Under the pieces are notes generated by a model. That model saw nothing but the letters and a program-made list of their open reading frames with translations, searched no databases and was not told the origin of the DNA. From a virus (lineage: Duplodnaviria > Heunggongvirae > Uroviricota > Caudoviricetes), in the IMG/VR virus record IMGVR_UViG_2667527818_000007: a stretch of 34,477 bases of DNA; one strand, written 5' to 3'. The number at the start of each line of letters is the position of its first letter. Position 1 is the stretch's first letter. Of this stretch, positions 2,584-26,144 are shown piece after piece. The translations under genes were made by a program, and so were the position numbers.

Positions 2584-3080
2584 CAGTGATGACGCTCAAT
2601 CTCGTTGAAAAACAGCCAGCAGCTATGCGCCGGATAATTGGTAAGCATCTTGCCGTTCCTCGCTGGCAGGATACATGTGATTATTATAATCAGATGATGG
2701 AGCGCGAACGGCTAACAGTTTGCTTTCATGCGCAGTTAAAACAGCGTCACGCAACGATGCGTTTTGAAGAAATGAACGACGTCGAACGTGAACGACTGGT
2801 ATGTGCAATTGATGAATTGCGTGGGGCATTCTCAAAACGTCGTCAGGTCGGTGCAAGTGAGTATGCATATATTAGTTTTTTAACAGTCAGTCAGCGTCGT
2901 ACTTTATTTATGCATGCCGGATTGACTGAAAAAGAATTTAACCAGCCATACTGGCGAATTAATGAAGAGTCATGTTACTGGCGTGATGCTTTATTCCGTG
3001 CATTACGTGAATTATTCAGCCTGTTTGAGTATGCACCGACAATTCTGACGTCGGTAAAACCAGAGCAATATCTGCATTAA
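2574..3080 (+). CDS. B: replication protein B-like (168 aa; helicase-loader equivalent in P2)
   Basis: Position and length match P2 gpB (about 166 aa) in the early operon. Confidence 0.65.
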   Translation: MEMTVMTLNLVEKQPAAMRRIIGKHLAVPRWQDTCDYYNQMMERERLTVCFHAQLKQRHATMRFEEMNDVERERLVCAIDELRGAFSKRRQVGASEYAYISFLTVSQRRTLFMHAGLTEKEFNQPYWRINEESCYWRDALFRALRELFSLFEYAPTILTSVKPEQYLH

Positions 3081-3143
3081 GTAATTAACCAGAGTTTTTA
3101 ACGCACTTAATCGTGCGGGGCTTCTTTTTGCCTGGAGAAAGTT

Positions 3144-3368
3144 ATGCATACAGTTTCTGAAAATCAGTGCGGTAAATACGCATTACTGCTGCAACAGGCC
3201 AGAACCGAAGCACAGGCCGACGCTGCGACGCGCTTTTCTTCTCATCTTGATGCCATGATTCGCCACATCACAAAGGCGGAGTTATCCCGCGTGGAGATAG
3301 TCGAGCTGCTCAGTCAGGAGTCGGAAAAATTTCACAATATCGGATTGTCTCGCGGGGAGGTGCTTTGA
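3144..3368 (+). CDS. early-operon hypothetical protein (74 aa)
   Basis: ORF in the early operon; position equivalent to P2 orf80. Confidence 0.5.
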
Positions 3369-3670
3369 TGTCCTGTTCTCGTTCAGTTGTATTACTGAAT
3401 AACGCCTTAAAAATCGCCGTTATGAAAAATGGCGATTTGTCTCTTATTCAACTTGGTCTTGATAAAGAAAAACGCGAAATAACTGAGTCTGTTATCGCGA
3501 TTTATCAGAACGAATTAAACCTCCTGTCTGATGTGGTCAATTTGCTTGTTAAACGCGCTGTGTTTCACAAGCAAATCTCCTCCGTGGATGAACTGACGAA
3601 ATTAACGACAGAAATCGCCAGCTATTGCGCTGATGAATTTAAAAACCTTAACGACAAAAGGAACTGGTAA
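3365..3670 (+). CDS. early-operon hypothetical protein (101 aa)
   Basis: Translationally coupled (overlapping stop/start) in the early operon; position of P2 orf81. Confidence 0.5.
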
Positions 3671-3894
3671 TGCCGGACAACGTAGATTTTATTCAGGCAC
3701 AACAGGCTGAATTACTGGAGCGCCAGATTAACGCGGCAAGGGTAAAACATTGCGGTGCTTCTGCGATGGTTTGCGAAGAGTGTGACGCGCCAATACCTGC
3801 TGCCCGTCGTGCGGCTTATCCGTCAGCCACGCGTTGTGTTTCCTGTCAGTCAGTTTTTGAAGCAAAAAACAAACATTACCGGAGAACGGCATGA
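3670..3894 (+). CDS. TraR/DksA-family C4 zinc-finger protein (74 aa)
   Basis: CEEC-x17-CVSC motif (CxxC...CxxC) typical of the TraR/DksA zinc finger; position of P2 orf82. Confidence 0.65.
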   Translation: MPDNVDFIQAQQAELLERQINAARVKHCGASAMVCEECDAPIPAARRAAYPSATRCVSCQSVFEAKNKHYRRTA

Positions 3895-4166
3895 GTATTC
3901 GTATTGAAATTGGCGAACGTTATGTCGTTACCAGTGACAGCTTTCAGTTTATTCTCCACGAGAAAAAGAGAGCTGAAAGCGGTAAAAACGCCGGTCAGGA
4001 ATGGCTGGCGGTGGTTGGTTATTACCCGAAATTAAGCCAGCTCGTTTCCGGCCTGATGCATCACGATATTCTGACCGGAAGCGCAAAGTCTTTTGCTGAT
4101 TTAAACGCGCAGGTTGAGCAACTCAGCAAGCGTTGTTCAGAGGCTTTTGGCTCATATGGCCGTTAA
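3891..4166 (+). CDS. early-operon hypothetical protein (91 aa)
   Basis: Coupled ORF upstream of gene A; position of P2 orf83. Confidence 0.5.
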   Translation: MSIRIEIGERYVVTSDSFQFILHEKKRAESGKNAGQEWLAVVGYYPKLSQLVSGLMHHDILTGSAKSFADLNAQVEQLSKRCSEAFGSYGR

Positions 4167-6432
4167 AGCCTCCGGGCGTTTTGTCCCTCCGTCAGCATTT
4201 GCCGCAGGCACCGGTAAGACGTTTACCGGTGCTTATGCATGGAACGCGCCACGCGAGGCCGTCGGGCGCGAAAGACCCCTTACACGTGACGAGATGCGTC
4301 AGGTGCAAGGTGTTTTATCCACGATTAACCGCCTGCCTTACTTTTTGCGCTCGCTGTTTACTTCACGGTATGACTACATCCGGCGCAATAAAAGCCCGGT
4401 GCACGGGTTTTATTTCCTCACATCCACTTTTCAGCGTCGTTTATGGCCGCGCATTGAGCGTGTGAATCAGCGCCATGAAATGAACACCGACGCGTCGTTG
4501 CTGTTTCTGGCAGAGCGTGATCACTATGCGCGCCTGCCGGGAATGAATGACAAGGAGCTGAAAAAGTTTGCCGCCCGTATCTCATCGCAGCTTTTCATGA
4601 TGTATGAGGAACTCAGCGATGCCTGGGTGGATGCGCATGGCGAAAAAGAATCACTGTTTACGGATGAGGCTCAGGATCACCTGTATGGTCATGTTGCTGG
4701 CGCTGCACGAGCTTTCAATATTTCCCCTCTCTACTGGAAAAAATACCGTAAAAGACAGATGACCACGAGGCAGGCATATTCTGCCATTGCCCGTCTGTTT
4801 AACGATGAGTGGTGGACTCATCAGCTTAAAGGCCAGCGTATGCGCTGGCATGAAGCGTTACTGATAGCTGTCGGGGAGGTCAATAAAGACCGTTCTCCTT
4901 ATGCCAGTAAACACGCCATTCGTGATGTGCGTGCGCGCCGCCAGGCAAATCTGGAATTTCTTAAATCGTGTGACCTTGAAAACAGGGAAACCGGCGAGCG
5001 CATCGACCTTATCAGTAAGGTGATGGGCAGTATTTCTAATCCTGAAATTCGCCGGATGGAGCTGATGAACACCATTGCCGGTATTGAGCGTTACGCCGCT
5101 GCAGAGGGTGATGTGGGGATGTTTATCACGCTGACCGCGCCGTCAAAGTATCACCCGACACGTCAGGTAGGAAAAGGCGAAAGTAAAACCGTGCAGCTTA
5201 ATCACGGCTGGAACGATGAGGCATTTAATCCAAAGGATGCGCAGCGTTATCTCTGCCGTATCTGGAGCCTGATGCGCACGGCATTCAAGGATAATGATTT
5301 ACAGGTCTACGGTTTGCGTGTCGTCGAGCCACACCACGACGGAACGCCGCACTGGCATATGATGCTTTTTTGTAATTCACGCCAGCGTAACCAGATTATC
5401 GAAATCATGCGTCGCTATGCGCTCAAAGAGGATGGCGACGAAAGAGGAGCCGCGCGAAACCGTTTTCAGGCAAAACACCTTAACCGGGGCGGTGCTGCGG
5501 GATATATCGCGAAATACATTTCAAAAAACATCGACGGCTATGCACTGGATGGTCAGCTCGATAACGACACCGGCATGCCGCTGAAAGACACTGCAGCGGC
5601 TGTTACCGCATGGGCGTCAACGTGGCGCATCCCGCAATTTAAAACGGTTGGCCTGCCGACAATGGGGGCTTACCGTGAACTACGCAAATTGCCGCGCGGC
5701 GTCAGCATTGCTGATGAGTTTGACGAGCGCGTCGAGGCTGCACGCGCCGCCGCAGACAGTGGTGATTTTGCGTTGTATATCAGCGCGCAGGGTGGGGCAA
5801 ATGTCCCGCGCGATTGTCAGACTGTCAGAGTCGCCCGTAGCCCGTCGGATGAAGTTAACGAGTACGAGGAAGAAGTCGAGAGAGTGGTCGGCATTTACGC
5901 GCCGCATCTCGGCGCGCGTCATATTCATATCACCAGAACGACGGACTGGCGCATTGTGCCGAAAGTTCCGGTCGTTGAGCCTTTGACTTTAAAAAGCGGC
6001 ATCGCCGCGCCTCGGAGTCCTGTCAATAACTGTGGAAAGCTCACCGGTGGTGATACTTCGTTACTGGCTCCCACACCTTCTGAGCACGCCGCAGCAGTGC
6101 TTAATCTGGTTGATGACGGTGTTATCGAATGGAATGACCCGGAGGTCGTGAGGGCGCTCAGAGGTGCATTAAAATACGGCCTGAGAAGACCAAACCGTCA
6201 GCAAAGAAACGGAAGCCCGTTAAAACCGCATGAAATTGCACCATCGGCCAGACTGACCCGGTCTGAACGATTGCAAATCACCCGTATCCGCGTTGACCTT
6301 GCTCAGAACGGTATCAGGCCGCAGCGATGGGAGATTGAGGCGCTGGCGCGTGGGGCAACCGTAAATTATGACGGGAAAAAATTCAGATATCCGGTCGCTG
6401 ATGAGTGGCCGGGGTTCTCGTTACCCATTTGA
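4156..6432 (+). CDS. A: rolling-circle replication initiator gpA (HUH endonuclease)
   Basis: HUH-type motif HHDGTPHWHMMLF and tyrosine-containing YIAKYISK. The tracked ORF starts at a TTG at 4114; the ATG at 4156 (MAVKASGRF...) is the more plausible start. Confidence 0.85.
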   Translation: MAVKASGRFVPPSAFAAGTGKTFTGAYAWNAPREAVGRERPLTRDEMRQVQGVLSTINRLPYFLRSLFTSRYDYIRRNKSPVHGFYFLTSTFQRRLWPRIERVNQRHEMNTDASLLFLAERDHYARLPGMNDKELKKFAARISSQLFMMYEELSDAWVDAHGEKESLFTDEAQDHLYGHVAGAARAFNISPLYWKKYRKRQMTTRQAYSAIARLFNDEWWTHQLKGQRMRWHEALLIAVGEVNKDRSPYASKHAIRDVRARRQANLEFLKSCDLENRETGERIDLISKVMGSISNPEIRRMELMNTIAGIERYAAAEGDVGMFITLTAPSKYHPTRQVGKGESKTVQLNHGWNDEAFNPKDAQRYLCRIWSLMRTAFKDNDLQVYGLRVVEPHHDGTPHWHMMLFCNSRQRNQIIEIMRRYALKEDGDERGAARNRFQAKHLNRGGAAGYIAKYISKNIDGYALDGQLDNDTGMPLKDTAAAVTAWASTWRIPQFKTVGLPTMGAYRELRKLPRGVSIADEFDERVEAARAAADSGDFALYISAQGGANVPRDCQTVRVARSPSDEVNEYEEEVERVVGIYAPHLGARHIHITRTTDWRIVPKVPVVEPLTLKSGIAAPRSPVNNCGKLTGGDTSLLAPTPSEHAAAVLNLVDDGVIEWNDPEVVRALRGALKYGLRRPNRQQRNGSPLKPHEIAPSARLTRSERLQITRIRVDLAQNGIRPQRWEIEALARGATVNYDGKKFRYPVADEWPGFSLPI

Positions 6433-6691
6433 GTAAAAACACAACGTAATTTGATATGGCATTGAATGGCTTATGCGGAGCAGTTATGGGGCAGCAGAAG
6501 GTCAATAGCATGCTGAATTAGAAGGCTAAATGCTATTGAGTGACTAGCATGTCGGTAAGGACAGCCGTTTGATCCGGGTCATAAAAGGCCATCCATTTAG
6601 TCTAATAAAATCATTGCGGGTAACCTTATGTCGACGCATAATTCGTCTTGAGCGAAGTCTTGTCAGTCTTTCATCGTATTGATGATGGGCG

Positions 6692-6722
6692 CAAAAAAAC
6701 CACCCTGGCAGGTGGTTTTTTT
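6692..6722. terminator. bidirectional intrinsic terminator
   Basis: aaaaaaaccacc-ctggca-ggtggttttttt: GC stem flanked by an A-run and a T-run; sits between the end of the A operon (+) and the 3' end of the small minus-strand ORF. Confidence 0.65.
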
Positions 6723-6734
6723 GTTTGAAGCATA

Positions 6735-6848
6735 TTAAAGCATAATGCTGACATTGATATTACTGACGTTTACTGACAAACCACTCGGACTACCGTTTGG
6801 ATAGCCAAAGAGGGCCAGAACGAGAATGCAGTAATAGCATTTCTTCAT
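6735..6848 (-). CDS. candidate small hydrophobic peptide (37 aa; MKKCYYCILVLALFGYPNGSPSGLSVNVSNINVSIML)
   Basis: ATG at 6846..6848 (minus) preceded by strong SD (caggaggcaat-ATG) and followed by the bidirectional terminator; hydrophobic N-terminus. The longer 88-aa tracked ORF is probably an upstream extension. Confidence 0.4.
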   Translation of the reverse strand: MKKCYYCILVLALFGYPNGSPSGLSVNVSNINVSIML

Positions 6849-7326
6849 ATTGCCTCCTGTAAGTAGAGGGCAACTTCCACCGGTATATGCGCTTCTTAGG
6901 TGGAATGACTTTTGAGCGAAGTCTTGCCCTGAAATAATGCTCTGTTTAAACGCAAAGTGATTTGGCATATCACCGAACAGAGAGCCGGAAAAACACAACA
7001 TATAGTATGTCGTTGTTTCTAGACATACATTCTATGTTGTGTAACAAGGGCTTTGCATTAAACATGTTTGAGATTTTATTGATGTAGCTCAAAGTAAAAA
7101 ACAGAGACTACGGATGATAAGGTCTTGAAAGCAATGTAAATTTTTTAAAGTTGCCAATTGCTTAAAAATGTACAGTTGCGGTATGGCGTACTTAAAAAGC
7201 TATGCATGCAACAAGTGAATGTTTTTGCATGCGTTGGGGATGTCCGTTCAGGCTGCGTGCGGTCAGGACTGGTGCGGATCCATAGTATCTATGCAACTGC
7301 ATTAAAACCGCCCTGTGAAGCGGGCG

Positions 7327-7345
7327 GGCGAGGCGGGGAAAGCAC
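7327..7345. other. cos site (19-nt cohesive-end sequence ggcgaggcggggaaagcac)
   Basis: Matches my recollection of the P2 cohesive end; located upstream of Q/P at the vegetative genome end, as expected. Confidence 0.6.
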
Positions 7346-7522
7346 TGCGCGCTGGCGGTGGTGCTGATTTTATTTTTTCAGCGTCTCAGCGTCTCAGCGC
7401 GTCGTGACGGCGTTTGGATTGTGCGCCGGGGCGTTGGTGTGTCTGCGGGGTGTTTTGTGCGGTGGTGAGCGTGTGAGGGCGTGATGACGGGGTGTAAAAA
7501 AGCCGCCCGCAGGCGGCGATGT

Positions 7523-8557
7523 TCAGCCGTTGTCAGTGTCCAGTGAGTAGTTTTTAAAGCGGATGACCTCCTGACCGAGCCAGCCGTTTATCTCGCGGAT
7601 CCTGTCCTGTAACGGGATAAGCTCATTGCGGACAAAGACCTTTGCCACTTTCTCAATATCACCCAGCGACCCGACGTTCTCCGGCTTGCCGCCCATCAAC
7701 TGAAAGGGGATGCGGTGCGCGTCCAGCAGGTCAGCGGCGCTGGCTTTTTTGATATTAAAAAAATCGTCCTTCGTTGCCACTTCACTGAGCGGGATAATTT
7801 TAATGCCGTCAGCTTTCCCCTGCGGGGCATAGAGAAACAGGTTTTTAAAGTTGTTGCGGCCTTTCGACTTCACCATGTTTTCGCGAAGCATTTCGATATC
7901 GTTGCGATCCTGCACGGCATCAGTGACGTACATGATATATCCGGCATGAGCGCCGTTTTCGTAATACTTGCGGCGGAACAGCGTGGCCGACTCATTCAGC
8001 CAGGCAGAGTTAAGGGCGCTGAGATATTCCGGCAGACCGTACAGCTCCTGATTAATATCCGGCTCCAGCAGGTGAAACACGGAGCCGGGCGCGAAAGGTG
8101 TCGGCTCGTTGAAGGACGGCACCCACCAGTAAACATCCTCCTCCACGCCACGGCGGGTATATTTTGCCGGTGAGGTTTCCAGTCTGATGACCTTACCGGT
8201 GGTGCTGTAACGCTTTTCCAGAAACGCATTACCGAATACCAGAAAATCCAGCACAAAGCGGCTGAAATCCTGCTGAGAAAGCCACGGGTGTGGGATAAAC
8301 GTTGAGGCCAGAATATTACGTTTGACGTAAATCGGTGAGCTGTGATGCACGGCAGCACGCAGGCTTTTTGCCAGACCGGTAAAGCTGACCGGTGGCTCAT
8401 ACCATCTGCCGTTACTGATGCACTCGACGTAATCCAGAATGTCACGGCGGTCGAGTACCGGCACCGGCTCACCAAAGGTGAATGCCTCCATTTTCGGGGC
8501 GCTGGCGGTCATTTTTTTTGCCGCAGGTTGCGGTGTTTTCCCTTTTTTCTTGCTCAT
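7523..8557 (-). CDS. Q: portal protein gpQ (344 aa)
   Basis: Same length as P2 Q; precedes the terminase gene on the minus strand, reading toward cos. Confidence 0.85.
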   Translation of the reverse strand: MSKKKGKTPQPAAKKMTASAPKMEAFTFGEPVPVLDRRDILDYVECISNGRWYEPPVSFTGLAKSLRAAVHHSSPIYVKRNILASTFIPHPWLSQQDFSRFVLDFLVFGNAFLEKRYSTTGKVIRLETSPAKYTRRGVEEDVYWWVPSFNEPTPFAPGSVFHLLEPDINQELYGLPEYLSALNSAWLNESATLFRRKYYENGAHAGYIMYVTDAVQDRNDIEMLRENMVKSKGRNNFKNLFLYAPQGKADGIKIIPLSEVATKDDFFNIKKASAADLLDAHRIPFQLMGGKPENVGSLGDIEKVAKVFVRNELIPLQDRIREINGWLGQEVIRFKNYSLDTDNG

Positions 8558-10329
8558 CAGTAAAACTCCAGAATGGTGGATGTCAGCGGGGTGCTGATAC
8601 CGGCGGTGAGTGGCTCATTTAACAGGGCGTGCATGGTCGCCCAGGCGAGGTCGGCGTGGCTGGCTTCCTCGCTACGGCTGGCCTCATAGGTGGCGCAGCG
8701 TCCGCTGCTGGTCATGGTCTTGCGGATAGCCATAAACGAGCTGGTGATGTCGGTGGCGCTGACGTCATATTCCAGACAGCCACGGCGGATGACGTCTTTT
8801 GCCTTGAGCACCATTGCGGTTTTCATTTCCGGCGTGTAGCGGATATCGCGCGCGGCGGGATAGAACGAGCGCACGAGCTGGAACACGCCGACACCGAGGC
8901 CGGTGGCATCAATTCCGATGTATTCGACGTTGTATTTTTCGGTGAGTTTGCGGATGGATTCCGCCTGAGTGGCAAAGTCCATGCCTTTCCACTGGTGACG
9001 CTCAAGTATTCTGAATTTACCTCCGGCCACCACCGGCGGTGCCAGCACCACGCATCCGGCGCTGTCGCCACGGTGTGACGGGTCGTAACCAATCCATACC
9101 GGGCGGGAGCCGAACGGATTGGCGGCAAACGGCGCATAGTCTTCCCATTCTTCCAGCGTGTCGACCATGCAGCGTTGCAGCTCCTCGAACGGGAACACCG
9201 ACGCCTTGTCGTCAACAAATTCACACATGAACAGGTTTTTAAAATCGTCGGCGCTGTTTTCACGTTTGAGCTGCTCAATGTCGAACAGCGTGCAGCCACC
9301 TTTCAGGGCGTCCTCAATGGTGACAATCTGCCGCCACTGGCCGTCCGCACAGAGAAGCCCCCCGGCAAGGGCGTTATGACTGACGTCGATTTCCACGCGT
9401 TCGGCGGCGCTGGCGCGTCCCCGGTTGAACAGTTCACCCGACCAGAATGGGTAGGCGTCGTGCGCCAGCGTGGACGGGGTGGAGAAATAGGTCGAGCGCA
9501 GGTGGCTCTGTGAGGCCATACCTGATGCCACCTTACGCAGTACCTGAAAATTCGGGATCCAGAAAATCTCGTCGACGTACAGGTCGCCGTTATGGCTCTG
9601 TGCGGTGTTGGAGTTGGTGCCGAGAAAAATCAGTTTTGCGCCGTTATTGCCCAGGACAATCGGGTCACCGGTCAGGTCAACGTCAACCAGCCGGGCAAAG
9701 GCGATGATGTATTCGCGGAACACATACGCCTGCGTTTTACTGGCCGACAGAAAAATCTGGTTATGACCGGTTTTCAGGGCGCGCAGCAGCGCCTCGCGGG
9801 AAAAATAAAACGTCGCGCCAATCTGGCGGGATTTCAGGATATCGCGGATGCGGTGCTCAAGCCCGGCGCGATACCAGTGCAACTGATAGTCGAAAGACTG
9901 CTCAAAGAAAATCTGCTCCAGCTTTTCGATGGCCTCGTCACTGAAAAAATTCTTTTTCGGTTTGCGACGCCCGCCTTTGTTGCGGTTAGCGACGTTCGGA
10001 TTAAGGTCTGCCTCGTTGCCGGTCTGACTGTAGCGGTTTACCCGTGCCAGTCGTTCAATCTGGCGTCCGAGCAGGTCAATTTCCTTGAAGTCACCGCCGG
10101 TTTTCTGCGGTTTGATGATGAGCTGGGTCAGCCGCGCTTCCAGACTCATTTCGACACGGCTGATGGGGGCAACGCTGTCCCAGCCGTCGCGCTGTTTCCA
10201 GCTCTGCACCGTCGGGCGTTTCATCTGCAACATGGCGGCAATCTGCGGCACGGAAAATCCCTGCCAGTACAGCAGCGCCGCCTGACGACGCGGGTCGTGT
10301 AAAAGAGTGGTGTCTGTGGTGATGGTCAT
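8557..10329 (-). CDS. P: terminase large subunit gpP (590 aa from internal start MTITTD...)
   Basis: Length matches P2 P when started at the Met at 10329; the tracked ORF extends 10 codons upstream. Confidence 0.85.
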   Translation of the reverse strand: MTITTDTTLLHDPRRQAALLYWQGFSVPQIAAMLQMKRPTVQSWKQRDGWDSVAPISRVEMSLEARLTQLIIKPQKTGGDFKEIDLLGRQIERLARVNRYSQTGNEADLNPNVANRNKGGRRKPKKNFFSDEAIEKLEQIFFEQSFDYQLHWYRAGLEHRIRDILKSRQIGATFYFSREALLRALKTGHNQIFLSASKTQAYVFREYIIAFARLVDVDLTGDPIVLGNNGAKLIFLGTNSNTAQSHNGDLYVDEIFWIPNFQVLRKVASGMASQSHLRSTYFSTPSTLAHDAYPFWSGELFNRGRASAAERVEIDVSHNALAGGLLCADGQWRQIVTIEDALKGGCTLFDIEQLKRENSADDFKNLFMCEFVDDKASVFPFEELQRCMVDTLEEWEDYAPFAANPFGSRPVWIGYDPSHRGDSAGCVVLAPPVVAGGKFRILERHQWKGMDFATQAESIRKLTEKYNVEYIGIDATGLGVGVFQLVRSFYPAARDIRYTPEMKTAMVLKAKDVIRRGCLEYDVSATDITSSFMAIRKTMTSSGRCATYEASRSEEASHADLAWATMHALLNEPLTAGISTPLTSTILEFY

Positions 10330-19189: not shown

Positions 19190-21508
19190 ATGAGCACAAA
19201 ATTCAGAACCGTTATCACCACTGCCGGTGCAGCAAAGCTGGCAGCGGCAACCGCACCGGGAGGGCGGAAGGTCAACATTACCACGATGGCCGTCGGGGAT
19301 GGCGGTGGTAAATTGCCTGTCCCGGATGCCGGACAGACCGGGCTTATCCACGAAGTCTGGCGACATGCGCTGAACAAAATCAGCCAGGACAAACGAAACA
19401 GTAATTATATTATCGCAGAGCTGGTTATTCCGCCGGAGGTGGGCGGTTTCTGGATGCGTGAGCTTGGCCTGTACGATGATGCAGGAACGTTAATTGCCGT
19501 GGCGAACATGGCCGAAAGTTATAAGCCTGCCCTTGCCGAAGGCTCAGGGCGTTCGCAGACCTGCCGCATGGTCATCATCGTCAGCAGTGTGGCCTCAGTG
19601 GAGCTGACTATTGACACCACAACGGTGATGGCAACGCAGGATTACGTTGATGACAAAATTGCAGAGCACGAACAGTCACGACGTCACCCGGACGCCTCTC
19701 TGACCGCAAAAGGTTTTACTCAGCTAAGCAGCGCGACCAACAGCACGTCTGAAACACTGGCCGCAACGCCGAAAGCGGTAAAGGCCGCCTATGACCTTGC
19801 TAACGGGAAATATACTGCGCAGGATGCCACCACGGCGCGAAAAGGCCTTGTTCAGCTCAGTAGTGCGACTAACAGCACGTCTGAAACGCTCGCCGCAACA
19901 CCAAAAGCGGTAAAAGCAGCGTATGACCTTGCTAACGGGAAATATACCGCACAGGACGCCACCACAGCGCGAAAAGGCCTTGTCCAGCTCAGTAGTGCCA
20001 CCAACAGCGATTCTGAAACGCTTGCGGCAACGCCAAAGGCGGTTAAGACAGCGTATGACCTTGCTAACGGGAAATACACTGCACAGGATGCCACCACGGC
20101 GCGGAAAGGCCTTGTCCAGCTCAGTAGTGCCATCAACAGCGATTCTGAGACGCTGGCTGCAACACCAAAAGCGGTGAAGTCTGCCTATGACAATGCTGAA
20201 AAACGTCTTCAGAAAGATCAGAATGGTGCGGATATTCCGGGAAAGGATACCTTCACGAAAAATATCGGTGCCTGTCGTGCTTATAGCGGCGCTTTGAGCA
20301 CTGAAGCCGGAAACTGGACAACCGCTCAGTTTATTGAATGGCTGGATTCCCGTGGTGCATTTAATCATCCGTACTGGATGTGCAAAGGCTCCTGGTCATA
20401 TGCAAATAACAAAATCATTACGGATACCGGATGTGGTGATATCCACCTGGCTGGTTGTGTCGTCGAGGTCATGGGAACAAAATCTGCAATCACTATTCGA
20501 GTGACCACGCCGACAACATCAAGCGGTGGCGGTACAACCAGCGCGCAATTCACTTACATTAATCATGGGGACGGCTACTCCCCCGGCTGGCGTCGTGACT
20601 GGAATCGTCAGGGCGACGCAATGACCGGAACGATTAATCAGGATGGCGGAAGCCAGAATGCCTATATGTCTACGGCCTTATGTTCAGGCACCAGAGGCGG
20701 CAAAAAATATCTCAGAAAGTTTCGTGGTGGAGAAGGAGACACTATCTGGCATGAAACAGTGCAGGGCGGGGTAATTCGCTGGGCGACAGGAAACTATGAC
20801 GCTCAGGAAGAATTATCACTCAGCTCCGCTTATGGTCTCCGTTCTAGAGGTGAAATTACATCACTCAGTGCTAATGGTCTGCGCATTGCTTATGGCAATT
20901 ATGGATTCTTTATCAGGAATGATGGTGGCAGCACATATTTAATGCTGACGGCCTCTGGTGATAAATTTGGGACATGGAACGGTTTAAGGCCGCTGACTAT
21001 CAATAACGCTAATGGCGGAGTGTCAATGGGGCATGGCCTGAGTGTTACTGGTGATATTGCCTCAAGTACCAAAGTACGTGCCGGTAGCGGGAAAAAGTTC
21101 ACGGTCAGCAGCAGAAATACATCCACGAAGGAAGCCGCATTCAATTTGTGGGGAAACTCAAGTCGTCCTGTGGTGGCTGAATTAGGTGATGATGCAGGCT
21201 GGCATTTTTACAGTCAGAGAAATACAGATAACAGCATCACTTTTGCTGTTAACGGGCAGGTATCACCATCTAACTATAGTAATTTTGATTCACGCTATGT
21301 CCGGGATATCCGGCTTGGTGGTGCTGCCACATACAAACCTGCGAACAATGGCATGACATGGACACATCAGGCACCGTCCGGGTGTGTATATTCCGGCATT
21401 ATTGTTCAGGATACCGGCTCAAACTCTGCCGATAACATTGGTGGCATATATTACAGACCGGTGCAGAAATACATTAACGGGACATGGTATAACGTGGCGC
21501 AGGTATAA
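19190..21508 (+). CDS. H: tail fiber protein gpH (772 aa) with internal tandem repeats
   Basis: Conserved N-terminus, then about 3.6 tandem copies of a 41-aa unit and a variable C-terminal receptor-binding region; followed by G. Confidence 0.85.
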   Translation: MSTKFRTVITTAGAAKLAAATAPGGRKVNITTMAVGDGGGKLPVPDAGQTGLIHEVWRHALNKISQDKRNSNYIIAELVIPPEVGGFWMRELGLYDDAGTLIAVANMAESYKPALAEGSGRSQTCRMVIIVSSVASVELTIDTTTVMATQDYVDDKIAEHEQSRRHPDASLTAKGFTQLSSATNSTSETLAATPKAVKAAYDLANGKYTAQDATTARKGLVQLSSATNSTSETLAATPKAVKAAYDLANGKYTAQDATTARKGLVQLSSATNSDSETLAATPKAVKTAYDLANGKYTAQDATTARKGLVQLSSAINSDSETLAATPKAVKSAYDNAEKRLQKDQNGADIPGKDTFTKNIGACRAYSGALSTEAGNWTTAQFIEWLDSRGAFNHPYWMCKGSWSYANNKIITDTGCGDIHLAGCVVEVMGTKSAITIRVTTPTTSSGGGTTSAQFTYINHGDGYSPGWRRDWNRQGDAMTGTINQDGGSQNAYMSTALCSGTRGGKKYLRKFRGGEGDTIWHETVQGGVIRWATGNYDAQEELSLSSAYGLRSRGEITSLSANGLRIAYGNYGFFIRNDGGSTYLMLTASGDKFGTWNGLRPLTINNANGGVSMGHGLSVTGDIASSTKVRAGSGKKFTVSSRNTSTKEAAFNLWGNSSRPVVAELGDDAGWHFYSQRNTDNSITFAVNGQVSPSNYSNFDSRYVRDIRLGGAATYKPANNGMTWTHQAPSGCVYSGIIVQDTGSNSADNIGGIYYRPVQKYINGTWYNVAQV
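19718..20190 (+). repeat. about 3.6 tandem copies of a 123-nt (41-aa) repeat inside H
   Basis: LSSATNS(T/D)SETLAATPKAVKAAYDLANGKYTAQDATTARKGLVQ repeated; nucleotide copies differ mainly at synonymous positions. Confidence 0.85.
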
Positions 21509-22036: not shown

Positions 22037-22261
22037 TAAGTTGTATGAGCTTACATATCTATGGCACAGAGTAAATCCTAATCTGACAGTCCGCTCTGTG
22101 CCAGCTGCGGAAGTTTATAATATGTTTATGGAGTTTGGTGTAAAATCAATTAACTAATTGATTTATATTGATTTTGTTGTGGGGGGTAGCAAAGCATTGT
22201 TTTCAATGCAATATACAGATGAGTAAATTTTACTGCCTAATCTAATAGAGTGTAAGCCACA

Positions 22262-22302
22262 CATAAAAATTAACTATGGCTGATCATTATACAATCAGCC
22301 AT
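22262..22302 (-). terminator. probable intrinsic terminator of the 451-aa cargo gene
   Basis: 9-bp stem atggctgat/atcagccat (22276..22302) followed on the minus strand by a T-rich run, about 10 nt after the stop codon. Confidence 0.5.
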
Positions 22303-22311
22303 AGCTGAGAG

Positions 22312-23667
22312 CTATTTGTCACTAGCCATATCTTTCTTGCATTTTGGACATGGCACCAACATATCTTCTTTCACCAAGTAATAATATGGAATTATTATGC
22401 TATAACCCTGACAAGTTATATGTTCATATGCGATCGTTGGTGTCATATCTTCTTTATCATCGGATTCTATCGGAACCTCCCTAAACATTAATTCAGGTAG
22501 TGGTAAATCCTCTGGGTTATATAATGTCACCATCAATGGTTGTCTTTGGTATGCTTCCTCATTATTTGGAGTTTGACCTGAAGCCAAGTCGATTAACTTA
22601 ACCATATTAATCTGTTCATTGCTAACACAATAATTTACTAATGTATTTAAAGCTTTCTCTTTGAATAAACGATGATATGGACCGTGTGCTTTACAGTTAA
22701 TTAACTCATTAAACATGCCAAAATTAAATTCGTAAGAATAATCTCCAGCAGTTAAAGGTAGTCTATAATAATCACTTATATTTACATTCCCTTTTTGAGT
22801 ATTATTCAACAATGTAATCATTAAATTGTGGAAGTTAACTAAGGAACAACCATCACGATCAGGAAAGCCATGTACAATCATGTCAGTTGCATTAATCATC
22901 CTATCTGAATTATGACTCAGATATTCATTGTTGTTACCAAATAAAAAATAGCCTTTATTTAATATGAAAACTGCATTTGGTAGTAATTTTGTTTCATTAC
23001 TCTGGATTTCTTCCTTAAGAGCAGATACTATATCATCCCAGTGCATTTCTGTTTCATAAGCAAAAACAACTCCAAACCCTGCGAGTGATTTGTTATTTAT
23101 ATAAAATCCATGGTCATTCTTTTTTCTTTGTAGTTTTTTATATGATGCAATGTTTTTTATGGCGCTGCTTAATTCTTTCCTGGTAAGGTTTGATTTTACT
23201 TGAATAACTCCATATACATTTTCAGAAGGGTAAACATCATATATTTCGTTACGCTGCATTAGCACATATCCATCATCTGCATCATATAATGCGATGTCAA
23301 TCTCGTTGCTAAGATGTCCTGTAGCAGCAGCAACTCTTACGCTTCTTGAAGATACAGCATAACGCCCTGGGAATAAACCGCTTAATTTCAAGAAGTTTTT
23401 TAGTATATTTTCTCGAGCATTGCCTAAGTCTCTTGGATGGGATATATCCCTCGTTTTCTCGTATTCAAATTCAATATTTTTTTGAAAGTAATTCAGTTCT
23501 CTGATAATGCCATGAAAATCTCGTTCTTTACTACGAATATCGTTCACATGTTTATTTAAATTTGAAAAATACTCACGTATATTCATTTCCTTTTTATCAA
23601 ACTCTGCACGTCGTTCTTTTTCAGCTTTTGTTATCCGAACTTTCCTAGTTTTTTGTTGCTTAGTCAT
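22312..23667 (-). CDS. hypothetical protein (451 aa), partner of the SIR2-like gene; possible nuclease-like core
   Basis: Intact AT-rich ORF in the G-FI hotspot; charged Lys/Arg/Glu-rich N-terminus; weak PD-(D/E)xK-like pattern (IDIALYD...GVIQVKS, aa about 124-158); C-terminal Cys cluster (...CQGY...CPKC). Function not established. Confidence 0.55.
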   Translation of the reverse strand: MTKQQKTRKVRITKAEKERRAEFDKKEMNIREYFSNLNKHVNDIRSKERDFHGIIRELNYFQKNIEFEYEKTRDISHPRDLGNARENILKNFLKLSGLFPGRYAVSSRSVRVAAATGHLSNEIDIALYDADDGYVLMQRNEIYDVYPSENVYGVIQVKSNLTRKELSSAIKNIASYKKLQRKKNDHGFYINNKSLAGFGVVFAYETEMHWDDIVSALKEEIQSNETKLLPNAVFILNKGYFLFGNNNEYLSHNSDRMINATDMIVHGFPDRDGCSLVNFHNLMITLLNNTQKGNVNISDYYRLPLTAGDYSYEFNFGMFNELINCKAHGPYHRLFKEKALNTLVNYCVSNEQINMVKLIDLASGQTPNNEEAYQRQPLMVTLYNPEDLPLPELMFREVPIESDDKEDMTPTIAYEHITCQGYSIIIPYYYLVKEDMLVPCPKCKKDMASDK

Positions 23668-24141
23668 TATATATTAACCCTATTAATAAGCGTATAAGTA
23701 AAGAAGATCGTATCATATCAAATACTATCAAATTCTGAGAGCAGTTTTTATAATAGTCAATCATATAGAAAGTAAAATCCTCGTGCTCAGCCTAAATATC
23801 TGCGCCGAATATCACTACATTTTTCCAGACCACTCTTCCCCTAACCTCCGCTCCTTGCTCAGCGCGGACCTTCTGTCCAGTGAGGTAGTCCGCTACGAGC
23901 AAGAAGTGGACCATGTTGTACTAATTATTAGAGAGTAAATCATTATGTATCGGATTGAATCTTGACTCACAGGTGGCACAATGTTTTCATATTGTAATTT
24001 GTGTATATATGCAGATGGTTACAGTTTCAACTATGTTTTTGTAATTTTAAAAATAGAATTTATTGTTTGTTTATTGATGTGTTTGTATTAAAGAATTCAT
24101 TTTATAGCCCTCTATAGAGGGCTCTACAAAGATAGTCAGTA

Positions 24142-25656
24142 TTATTGTGACGAGTACCGTTTAAAATCATATAAGCTAACAAGTCTTTTATAATCTGAGG
24201 ATGATATTTCAAGGGTAACTCCTTCCCTCAAATATCCTTCGATATTATCAAGGTCAATATTGTTTACATATGTGTTGTAAAAAATAACTCGAACGAGTTT
24301 GTACGGTTTGAATCCGAGGGAAATGATTTCATCCACTGTGTCGCAGTTAATTCTTTCAGATTCATCAATAGAATTAAAATAGGTGGTAAGATTTGTTTCC
24401 TGATTATTTTTAAGTTGCTCAATATTTTGTATTTCATTACATATTGTGGAAAATCCATGCGCTGTAAAATACTGTGTTCGGGTTACTTTTATTTTATTTA
24501 ATAGCATGATTAGCGCATCATTTTTGGAGTCCATGATTTCAAAATAATTCATAACCATTTCGGATGCTGATTGATAATGGTAAGTTATTTTCTGCACAGA
24601 TCCAACAGCCATGACTAGTTCGTCATTAGCTAAGTTATCTAAATCACCAACTATTTTCACTTTAACAGTACCGCCTTCTTTTATTTTTCTCATTACTCCT
24701 TCAACCTTTCTAATATCCATAGATGATACTGGAAGTTTAAGGTTTATTAACCCCTCGAAAATCCCTTGAAAATTATCGGTTTTAATCTTGTTGATTTTAA
24801 TATTACCAATATTTTCGATAACCACATCATGTTCAAGCACTTCAAGGGAGTTGTTGTCTGCGTCTCGTTCAATAAGCAGAAAATTCTTTCTAACCTTATC
24901 GGCTAAATCGGAATCTTTAGGAATATAAGAAAAAATAGTTTTCAGAATCTCTCTGATATTCTCATCGCTTATGCTATAGCCGATAAATATAATAGGATTG
25001 TGAATGAATAAAGAAATGAGCTGGGCTCTAATTAAGTGATTATTGATTTTAAATCTTTCATAATCGGAATCTGAAATCACAATAGATTCAGGATGTGAAA
25101 CACAACCGTGTATTTTATATACAGATCCGTAAGGGTTACTTAGCAGAATATCATTCCCAATGATTGGATTAAACCCAATCAATGTCTCAATGAATCTATC
25201 ATAATTCGTTGTAATAACTGAGCCTATATTTCGACTTGCTTTTGCAAATAATTCCATTTCTGTTGCATACTTATCATCATCATTTATTTGATGTAGATCT
25301 ACAAGTTCAGATATAAATATTTTCATGCGACTGGCAGAGTAGTTTCCTGAAGCAGCATACTCGTAGTATTTGTCATTTATTCTTTTAAACTTACCGTTCC
25401 TATCAGCTTCTAATAATCTATTGAACTCTGTTTCAATTTCGCTAGCTACTTTTGGTAGATCAATTTCACCTAAAGAATTAGCGTTCCTGCCTGCGGAGTC
25501 AAAATAAAAGTCATGACTCCCTTTCATTTCGTAAACAATCTTTTTTAGAAGTTCTGACCATGAGTAAGTGCCTACCAGGTATCTCCGGCTAAACCCTGCA
25601 CCAACAAACACTACTGGATGGTTTACATAAGATTCCATGAATTCACTAATATTCAT
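24142..25656 (-). CDS. SIR2-like (sirtuin-fold) protein (504 aa) with an uncharacterised C-terminal domain; candidate NAD+-consuming defence effector
   Basis: Sirtuin-family signature order in the N-terminal half: VFVGAGFS (GAGxS, aa 19-23), TTNYD (aa 149-153), KIHG (aa 181-184). The C-terminal half of about 250 aa is not Gly-rich and not recognised. SD ggagaagg upstream of the ATG. Confidence 0.7.
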   Translation of the reverse strand: MNISEFMESYVNHPVVFVGAGFSRRYLVGTYSWSELLKKIVYEMKGSHDFYFDSAGRNANSLGEIDLPKVASEIETEFNRLLEADRNGKFKRINDKYYEYAASGNYSASRMKIFISELVDLHQINDDDKYATEMELFAKASRNIGSVITTNYDRFIETLIGFNPIIGNDILLSNPYGSVYKIHGCVSHPESIVISDSDYERFKINNHLIRAQLISLFIHNPIIFIGYSISDENIREILKTIFSYIPKDSDLADKVRKNFLLIERDADNNSLEVLEHDVVIENIGNIKINKIKTDNFQGIFEGLINLKLPVSSMDIRKVEGVMRKIKEGGTVKVKIVGDLDNLANDELVMAVGSVQKITYHYQSASEMVMNYFEIMDSKNDALIMLLNKIKVTRTQYFTAHGFSTICNEIQNIEQLKNNQETNLTTYFNSIDESERINCDTVDEIISLGFKPYKLVRVIFYNTYVNNIDLDNIEGYLREGVTLEISSSDYKRLVSLYDFKRYSSQ

Positions 25657-26118
25657 TTATCCTTCTCCATAACAGGAATATTTATAGCTGATAAAGCATA
25701 CAGCATCTTTGATGAAGATGCCTTCAATTTTGTTCACTCATCATCCTATTCTACCTGTTTCATGACACAACAAGCCCAGAACAGCAGTATGTATGCCATT
25801 GGGGGAGCATATGGATTCAATTAAGTTACGGTCAGAATATCTTACATTCATCCAAAGTGAGGCAATATATATAATTTAGCAAATTAACATTGTCACCACT
25901 GCCAGTTAGGGTTATGGGAATAAACAAGGCCTACAGGGATTCTTAGCAACTGTACCCACAGATCGTTGATAATAATCCTCTCAGTTGATTATTTTTCCTC
26001 AGATCACTGAGAAATACAGGCTATTTCCGCTTTACGCTCAAAGCAGACTGTCAGATTTGTTAGCGTTTGGGCTATGTAAATTGTCAGTTGGAAAATGAGT
26101 GAGTGCAAATCATGACAG

Positions 26119-26144
26119 GCAGGCGGATTACCCGCCTTTTCTTT
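26119..26144 (+). terminator. putative plus-strand intrinsic terminator upstream of the FI late promoter
   Basis: aggcgg-attac-ccgcct followed by ttttcttt; short GC stem plus U-run. Confidence 0.35.

Follow-up and report, generated by a model that had tools for sequence, protein, structure and literature searches.

SIR2 enzymes that consume nicotinamide adenine dinucleotide (NAD+), here called NADases, are a recurrent effector of bacterial immunity, and the systems built on them differ in how infection is sensed. To judge by PDB entry titles and abstracts, the solved structures of ThsA, KomC, DSR2 and Avs5 are tetramers or filaments. In DSR2, as described in two reports (PMC11850899, PMC10981675), the N-terminal SIR2 NADase is joined through a middle region to a helical C-terminal domain, to which the tail tube protein of the phage binds. 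Catalogs of candidate systems extend beyond these cases: the PDC systems, 145 in all, are candidates that 'guilt-by-embedding' picked out at BREX, DISARM and type I restriction–modification loci, and are explicitly untested (bioRxiv 10.1101/2024.01.29.577857), a status also stated in the DefensePredictor preprint. Here we analyze a SIR2 gene of the PDC-S25 family in a stretch of 34,477 nucleotides (nt) of Caudoviricetes DNA (IMG/VR record IMGVR_UViG_2667527818_000007), the whole of which we call the window and which is a complete P2-like prophage.

We think it probable that this gene is a self-contained, single-protein anti-phage system, an abortive-infection NADase carried as cargo by the prophage. 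We read it as single-protein abortive infection because the catalytic residues are intact, the 50 best structural matches are defense NADases, the family occurs in solitary, mobile and defense-associated contexts, and conservation falls along the protein from the SIR2 domain toward the C terminus.

A catalogued and widespread family

The locus holds a single open reading frame (ORF) with an ATG start (coordinates of all features are given in Table 1), and RefSeq labels the identical gene 'SIR2 family protein'. PADLOC model PDLC04968 (PDC-S25) matches residues 2–502 on profile positions 9–515 of 517 (E 1.9e-144), the second PDC-S25 model, PDLC04967, matches with E 2.5e-61, and PHROG 2695 matches residues 1–503 (E 1e-137). 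A first-pass annotation made from the sequence alone had described a SIR2-like protein with an unrecognized C-terminal domain. By profile match, the protein is instead a member of an already catalogued family, and both profiles cover its C-terminal half too. NCBIfam yielded a model for neither the SIR2 protein nor its DUF6602 neighbor on the same island.

The family is large, with more than 2000 matches in a database clustered at 90%, and its members are about 500 amino acids (aa) long and conserved end to end. Hosts include Enterobacterales, Pseudomonas, Vibrio, Aeromonas, Priestia and Marinilabiliaceae, spanning Proteobacteria, Bacteroidota and Firmicutes. A divergent subfamily 2 (P0218–P0235) is found in Bacillales and other groups and includes pXO2-73 of the Bacillus anthracis virulence plasmid pXO2; the literature search found no paper mentioning pXO2-73. 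Full-length relatives are also encoded by the temperate phages phBC6A51, BK5-T and Javan227. Among 5426 complete Escherichia coli genomes, a family member is detectable by DNA in 72 (~1.3%), and this allele in 13. The one mention of PDC-S25 that our literature search turned up concerns an E. coli O157 strain for which PADLOC predicts the system.

The N-terminal domain

Pfam SIR2_2 (PF13289) matches residues 146–269 at 85.6 bits (cut-off 24.5), whereas Pfam SIR2 (PF02146) was not reported. The sirtuin-fold signatures picked out in the first-pass annotation are all present and in the order GAGxS, TTNYD, HG: VFVGAGFS starts at residue 16, TTNYD at 149 and KIHG at 181. In a family alignment of 45 homologues with 44–88% identity to the query, residues G19, G21, S23, T149, T150, N151, Y152, D153, H183 and G184 are invariant, so the motifs are real and not a chance match. 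The nearest solved chains by sequence are KomC (E 1.4e-9) and then ThsA (E 3e-9), and no canonical sirtuin deacylase could be identified by name among the PDB sequence matches. The putative catalytic histidine, H183, falls in alignment on H146 of KomC, which PDB entry 9xvc, 'KomC(H146N)', carries in mutated form.

An AlphaFold2 model built from the 45-sequence alignment has a mean predicted local distance difference test score (pLDDT) of 80.7, with residues 1–305 modeled confidently (mostly 80–95). The alignment to ThsA runs up to residue 303, and the strands and helix of the model up to residue 304. As the SIR2 domain extends to about residue 305, the additional region comprises some 200 aa (306–504), and not the roughly 250 aa from about residue 250 that had first been proposed. 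A Foldseek search of the model against the PDB returned 91 matches at E ≤ 0.001, and the top 50 are defense SIR2 NADases throughout, namely ThsA, DSR2, KomC and SIR2/HerA (ThsA 8bto, E 7e-9; KomC, target-normalized template modeling score 0.67). The zinc ribbon of canonical sirtuin deacylases, made of two CxxC pairs, was sought and not found: the protein has no CxxC motif and only three cysteines (185, 406 and 438). Together, the SIR2_2 match, the ThsA and KomC alignments and the predicted structure support the proposal that the N-terminal domain has a sirtuin fold of the defense-NADase type, and its conserved residues suggest that it hydrolyzes NAD+.

The C-terminal region

The region beyond the SIR2 domain falls into two parts. 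The middle segment, residues 306–359, is invariant across the alignment at L308, P309, D314, G328, G329, V333, N344 and G352, yet neither the full-length nor the domain-only model reaches a pLDDT of 50 there. The remainder, residues 360–504, is predicted by the domain-only model to form a bundle of nine helices, with pLDDT values of 90–98. Pfam searches with 40 C-terminal sequences gave no family that recurs, and a PDB profile search with the C-terminal region had a best E of 0.31. Structure searches were equally without relatives: nothing fell below E 1.2 in BFVD with the C-terminal bundle, and in Foldseek the C-terminal domain had no specific match to the fold of any PDB chain, including that of DSR2.

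The first-pass annotation had judged by eye that this region is rich in Lys, Asn and Ile, has no Gly-rich loop and does not look like a Rossmann-like ligand-binding domain. The last two points agree with our results. The helical domain is neither SLOG nor Rossmann-like in the model, and a scan of the full protein for GxGxxG and Walker A (G....GK[ST]) found neither, yet the GG pair at 328–329 is invariant in the family alignment. The composition is as described but not special to the C terminus: Lys, Asn and Ile together make up 24.8% of residues 360–504, 27.2% of residues 1–305, 23.7% of the neighboring gene product and 15.4% of the tail sheath protein, because the whole island has a GC content of 33%.

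A phmmer search with residues 306–504 against 1.84 billion representatives returned only 86 proteins; the ten that were checked are all N-terminal SIR2_2 proteins or truncated pieces of such proteins, and a profile search gave the same picture. From these matches, the C-terminal region is confined to the SIR2_2 architecture. One fragment that joins the C-terminal domain to a methyltransferase (P0386) is a single truncated piece on a 1.4-kb contig, which we set aside as an artefact or read-through and not as evidence of modularity.

Conservation declines along the protein. In subfamily 1 the median identity to the query is 53% for the SIR2 domain, 45% for the middle segment and 34% for the helical domain; in subfamily 2 the corresponding values are 32%, 21% and 15%. 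Such a gradient is typical of variable sensor domains in immune proteins, and by this analogy a sensor or oligomerization role for the C-terminal domain is plausible.

Genomic contexts of the SIR2 gene

The prophage in the window encodes an integrase, replication protein A, portal, tail fiber H, tail-fiber assembly protein G, sheath FI, tube FII and tape measure. The SIR2 gene lies between G and FI in a 4-kb island of 31–35% GC (33% overall), an interval that, from the P2 gene map, we take to be the second P2 hotspot. A second, defense-enriched P2 hotspot containing fun is described by Vassallo et al. 2022 (PMC9519451). The island's two genes, for the SIR2 protein and for a 451-aa DUF6602 protein, are both on the minus strand.

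The SIR2 gene moves together with its flanks as one cassette, which shares 95.5% identity across 2208 bp with a copy in a lambdoid prophage of E. coli NADC1036. There the SIR2 gene stands alone between AbiH and hokD, and the two copies agree at 126 of the 130 nt that precede the ATG. Elsewhere, one family member adjoins a type I restriction R subunit, a DUF262 protein, a PDC-S26 nuclease and a restriction endonuclease, in a defense island. Others lie in P4-like satellite islands, in small islands with CcdAB/TacA or RelE/MqsA toxin–antitoxin pairs, as a solitary insertion by thrC, in a mobile element of Priestia and on the margin of a Vibrio cholerae prophage. In the temperate Gram-positive phages BK5-T and phBC6A51 the family member is a solitary moron between lysin and integrase. 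The 12 further family contexts have no neighbor in common. On the best reading of this distribution, the SIR2 gene would work as a single gene, without a partner.

A related E. coli prophage (L009; strain MN06021, NZ_CM129879) has a clean 2967-bp deletion corresponding to window positions 22679–25645, which spares little of the SIR2 gene and removes codons 1–329 of the DUF6602 gene; what is left has fused into a 125-aa product, annotated there as a 'hypothetical protein'. We had considered this prophage as a P2 prophage with different cargo and rejected that view, since it is a precise deletion derivative of the same island. The deletion indicates that the island cargo is dispensable and can be lost.

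Proposed mechanism and alternatives

In the model that we favor, the N-terminal SIR2 domain would be an NAD+ glycohydrolase that is inactive in uninfected lysogens. On infection by a competing phage, the C-terminal region (the middle segment 306–359 plus the helical domain 360–504) would detect a phage-derived cue; the example of DSR2 makes a phage protein the most likely one. This would turn the enzyme on, probably via a changed oligomeric state; NAD+ would then be depleted and the infection would abort. We infer the NADase activity, the anti-phage function, the identity of the trigger and activation by oligomerization from the features described above; the last of these is plausible here because ThsA, KomC, DSR2 and Avs5 are tetrameric or filamentous.

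More tentatively, and with the odds somewhat against it, residues 306–504 might constitute a sensor-switch of new fold, in which the helical domain binds a conserved phage protein and the middle segment becomes ordered only on activation, for example as a filament or tetramer interface, thereby opening the NADase site. If true, the family would represent a compact and mechanistically distinct class of single-protein SIR2 immunity in P2-like, lambdoid and Gram-positive temperate phages and on plasmids such as pXO2. With the trigger identified, the few single-protein abortive-infection systems that are understood would gain a new type of sensor, and part of the phage-resistance phenotype of the ~1.3% of complete E. 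coli genomes with a family member would be explained.

Several points weigh against the abortive-infection NADase interpretation. Some SIR2-fold proteins are deacylases or ADP-ribosyltransferases. Our literature search found no experimental paper on this SIR2 family, and a promoter scan upstream of the SIR2 gene gave results at chance level (16 sites against 19.9 expected). The sensor role of the helical domain is suggested by analogy and by its faster divergence, which could equally reflect weak constraint on a scaffold. The middle segment, the best-conserved part of the C-terminal half although modeled with low confidence, might contribute to oligomerization, act by autoinhibition or bind a ligand.

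The last of these options leads to a different proposal, which we regard as unlikely: that the protein is an orphan signal-responsive effector, switched on by a small nucleotide bound at residues 306–359 or in the helical domain, much as ThsA is switched on by glycocyclic ADP-ribose (gcADPR) and KomC by deoxyinosine triphosphate (dITP). Either the infecting phage or the host, at another locus, would encode the enzyme that makes the signal. Both of the closest solved sequence relatives, KomC and ThsA, are ligand-activated and form filaments, and the invariant polar and glycine residues of the middle region (D314, G328, G329, N344, G352 and E366) are reminiscent of a ligand pocket. However, the protein has no SLOG/STALD or other nucleotide-binding domain, and the PADLOC ThsA profiles match only its SIR2 part (residues 121–305). 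The lack of a recurrent Pfam family among the C-terminal sequences and the non-Rossmann helical fold also speak against a nucleotide sensor, and genes for TIR proteins, deaminases, HAM1 or cyclases are adjacent in none of the contexts examined.

More doubtful still, in our view, is a role as a protein-modifying sirtuin: in superinfection control or lysogenic conversion, for example, the prophage would use a deacylase or ADP-ribosyltransferase activity to alter a protein of the host or of a phage, without depleting NAD+. All sirtuin chemistries share the catalytic Asn, Asp and His, NCBI names some subfamily-2 members, pXO2-73 among them, 'NAD-dependent protein deacylase', and the helical C-terminal domain could serve as a substrate-binding module. 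Against this, the zinc-binding four-cysteine module of canonical deacylases is absent, the sequence belongs to Pfam SIR2_2 and not to Pfam SIR2, the Foldseek top 50 contain defense NADases only, and the genomic contexts are defense islands and prophage hotspots.

A two-gene system made up of SIR2 and the adjacent DUF6602 PD-(D/E)xK nuclease-like protein is very improbable: the two genes do share one low-GC island and one strand, lack a strong terminator-like site between them and occur together in 12 E. coli genomes, but these 12 are near-identical copies of one prophage (99.3–99.9% identity), each gene occurs without the other in other prophages at ~95% DNA identity, two separate homology blocks meet at a boundary motif with the 475-bp spacer made up of the flanks of each gene, and the DUF6602 gene is in none of the other family contexts examined, the gene upstream of the SIR2 homologue in the satellite islands being unrelated to it. 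Distribution thus largely refutes the pairing, and the partner gene implied in the first-pass annotation is not conserved across family contexts.

The single-protein abortive-infection NADase thus stays our preferred interpretation of the SIR2 gene. The island and the sequences that border it may bear on how such a gene could travel.

Island architecture and boundary motif

Table 1. Positions in the window of the SIR2 gene, its predicted domains and motifs, and the island features around it.
Feature	Position	Strand	Basis or remark
SIR2-family coding sequence (CDS), 504 aa	24142..25656	-	Member of PADLOC PDC-S25 and PHROG 2695
SIR2 (sirtuin-fold) catalytic domain, aa 1–305	24742..25656	-	Pfam SIR2_2, AlphaFold, Foldseek
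GAGxS NAD-binding loop, G19-A20-G21-F22-S23	25588..25602	-	Matched in alignment by GAGVS/GAGLS in KomC and ThsA
TTNYD, aa 149–153, with putative catalytic Asn151	25198..25212	-	Residue-for-residue alignment to TTNYD of ThsA (N112) and KomC
Putative catalytic His183-Gly184	25105..25110	-	H183 aligns with ThsA H152 and KomC H146
Conserved middle segment, aa 306–359 (LPVSxMDIRKV...GGxIKVxI...AxGS)	24580..24741	-	Conservation; pLDDT low
C-terminal all-helical domain, aa 360–504, proposed sensor	24145..24579	-	Without recognizable relative
Shine-Dalgarno sequence GGAGAAGGA	25660..25668	-	Read from sequence, just upstream of the ATG
SIR2 cassette (gene, ~390 bp 5′ flank, ~300 bp 3′ flank)	23843..26049		Moves as one unit
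DUF6602 / PD-(D/E)xK (NucC-like) cassette	22060..23869		CDS 22312–23667 (-), 451 aa
23-nt motif TCCGCTTTACGCTCAAAGCAGAC	26026..26048	+	Right-hand border shared by island and SIR2 cassette
23-nt motif	23847..23869	+	SIR2/DUF6602 cassette junction; both cassette homologies end inside the motif
23-nt motif, inverted and degenerate copy	22089..22111	-	Left edge of the island

The DUF6602 protein matches Pfam DUF6602 (E 4.5e-22) and, over residues 50–252, PADLOC PD_DExK and NucC-like models; it has no PADLOC system assignment. Its residues ~50–250 resemble NucC and CBASS endonuclease effectors, and its C-terminal half is uncharacterized and ends in CPKC. A cassette with the DUF6602 gene and no SIR2 gene, 94.6% identical, lies beside an integrase in E. 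coli JNU. As each gene is found alone elsewhere as its own cassette, and the 12 other SIR2 contexts have no common neighbor, the DUF6602 gene is not the partner of SIR2; it is probably a second, independent single-gene defense candidate.

In P4-like satellite islands of Klebsiella and E. coli, a gene for a 370–375-aa protein (L004, 4797–5909; L019, 6820–7947) precedes the SIR2 homologue by 92 bp and has the same orientation. This protein has no Pfam or PADLOC match. We examined the gene as an alternative partner and did not retain it, since it showed no relation to DUF6602 or to any PADLOC model; it may be either a clade-specific partner or another cargo gene.

A 23-nt motif, TCCGCT-N4-GCTCARMGCRGAC, stands at the ends of both cassettes, with three copies in the window and none expected. 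The outer copies are extended by ACTGTCAGATT, present at 22080–22090 (-) and 26047–26057 (+) as an 11-bp inverted repeat, so that motif and extension together form inverted repeats of ~32 bp around the island. Homology to the lambdoid SIR2 copy stops at the right-edge motif, and in the lambdoid prophage of NADC1036 (L001) the motif brackets the SIR2 cassette at 7005–7027 and 9183–9205. It terminates the DUF6602 cassette elsewhere too, and further copies are found at 7784–7806 in L002 and 5283–5305 in L076.

The motif is not confined to these loci, being present in at least 120 IMG/VR stretches. In the motif-bearing stretches it separates a variable low-GC side (mean 39%) from a conserved P2-like or lambdoid backbone (mean 49%). 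Of 28 loci in P2-like viral contigs, 26 have the motif 193–337 bp, mostly 193–216 bp, ahead of the start of the sheath gene on its upstream side. Judged from these positions, the motif may be a hotspot border or a linker for the exchange of defense cassettes between unrelated prophages, and may help to explain how such cassettes are swapped. The idea that it forms a hairpin is weakly supported for the window copies, whose hairpin potential is weak (z −1.3, +0.1 and −1.75); other copies are stronger (z −3 to −3.9).

The lambdoid prophage L076 carries, at 2653–5026, an operon for an adenosine deaminase, Ham1 and a 264-aa SIR2_2 protein, the gene set of Kongming KomABC. This operon is bordered by the 23-nt motif and lies directly upstream of DUF1367, YbcO and antiterminator-Q genes, the same slot that the SIR2 cassette occupies in E. 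coli NADC1036.

Other features of the prophage were recorded alongside. The better-known P2 hotspot, at 6433–7522 between gene A (4114–6432) and portal Q (7523–8557), is nearly empty, with ~1.1 kb and no ORF above 88 aa, and accessory cargo is found only in the second hotspot. The tail fiber (19190–21508, +) contains four tandem units of ~42 aa (…GLVQLSSATNS(T/D)SETLAATPKAVKxAYDLANGKYTAQDATTA…). A strong terminator-like hairpin with a 16-bp stem lies at 22272–22306 (-), directly past the DUF6602 stop codon, and a GC-rich one followed by a T-run at 26121–26137 (+), ~100 bp upstream of the tail sheath gene. An Rfam scan of the island gave no match. In V. cholerae (L014, 12207–13043) the family member is located on the margin of a phage-like element with a gene for a PF18628/PF25513 (P2_N/P2_C) protein, a further type of mobile element in which the family is carried.

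Comparison with known systems

ThsA of type I Thoeris (SIR2-SLOG; PDB 6lhx, 8bto) is the best structural and second-best sequence match. The two proteins have identical TTNYD and HG motifs, a similar SIR2 boundary and a similar length (ThsA, 476–479 aa). Unlike in ThsA, the C-terminal half is all-helical and not SLOG/STALD, with no profile or fold match, and unlike in Thoeris a ThsB/TIR gene is absent nearby, the sole other sizeable ORF of the island being DUF6602. KomC of Kongming (PDB 8zsf, 9xvc), the best PDB sequence match, is a 264-aa SIR2-only protein that needs KomA, KomB and a dITP signal, whereas the protein studied here has 200 further residues at its C terminus; deaminase and HAM1 genes, both present in L076, are absent from the window island.

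SIR2-HerA (Nezha) and PD-T7-2 share the defense SIR2 fold, and PD-T7-2A is an E. coli Pfam SIR2_2 protein. Both systems require an adjacent HerA-like ATPase, and none is encoded in the island or in the family contexts examined. We had considered PD-T7-2, the Sir2 system of Vassallo et al., as the identity of the locus and rejected it, because that system is SIR2 plus a HerA-like ATPase; a paper on NAD depletion in V. cholerae likewise concerns Nezha and not this SIR2 family. Avs5 (SIR2-STAND) differs in that the protein described here has no Walker A motif and is only 504 aa long.

DSR2 (e.g. PDB 8wy8) resembles the present gene in being a single-gene system, and the SIR2 domains match structurally. 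Unlike DSR2, which has ~1000 aa, the protein has 504 aa, and no PADLOC DSR model matches it at E up to 1. From PDC-S25 and PHROG 2695, which are catalog entries only, it does not differ, and the association of PDC-S25 with known defense systems recurs here in the type I restriction island, the AbiH neighbor and the P2 hotspot. Set beside these systems, the effector domain is ordinary for bacterial immunity; what is new is a C-terminal module without known relatives, in a gene that has no partner.

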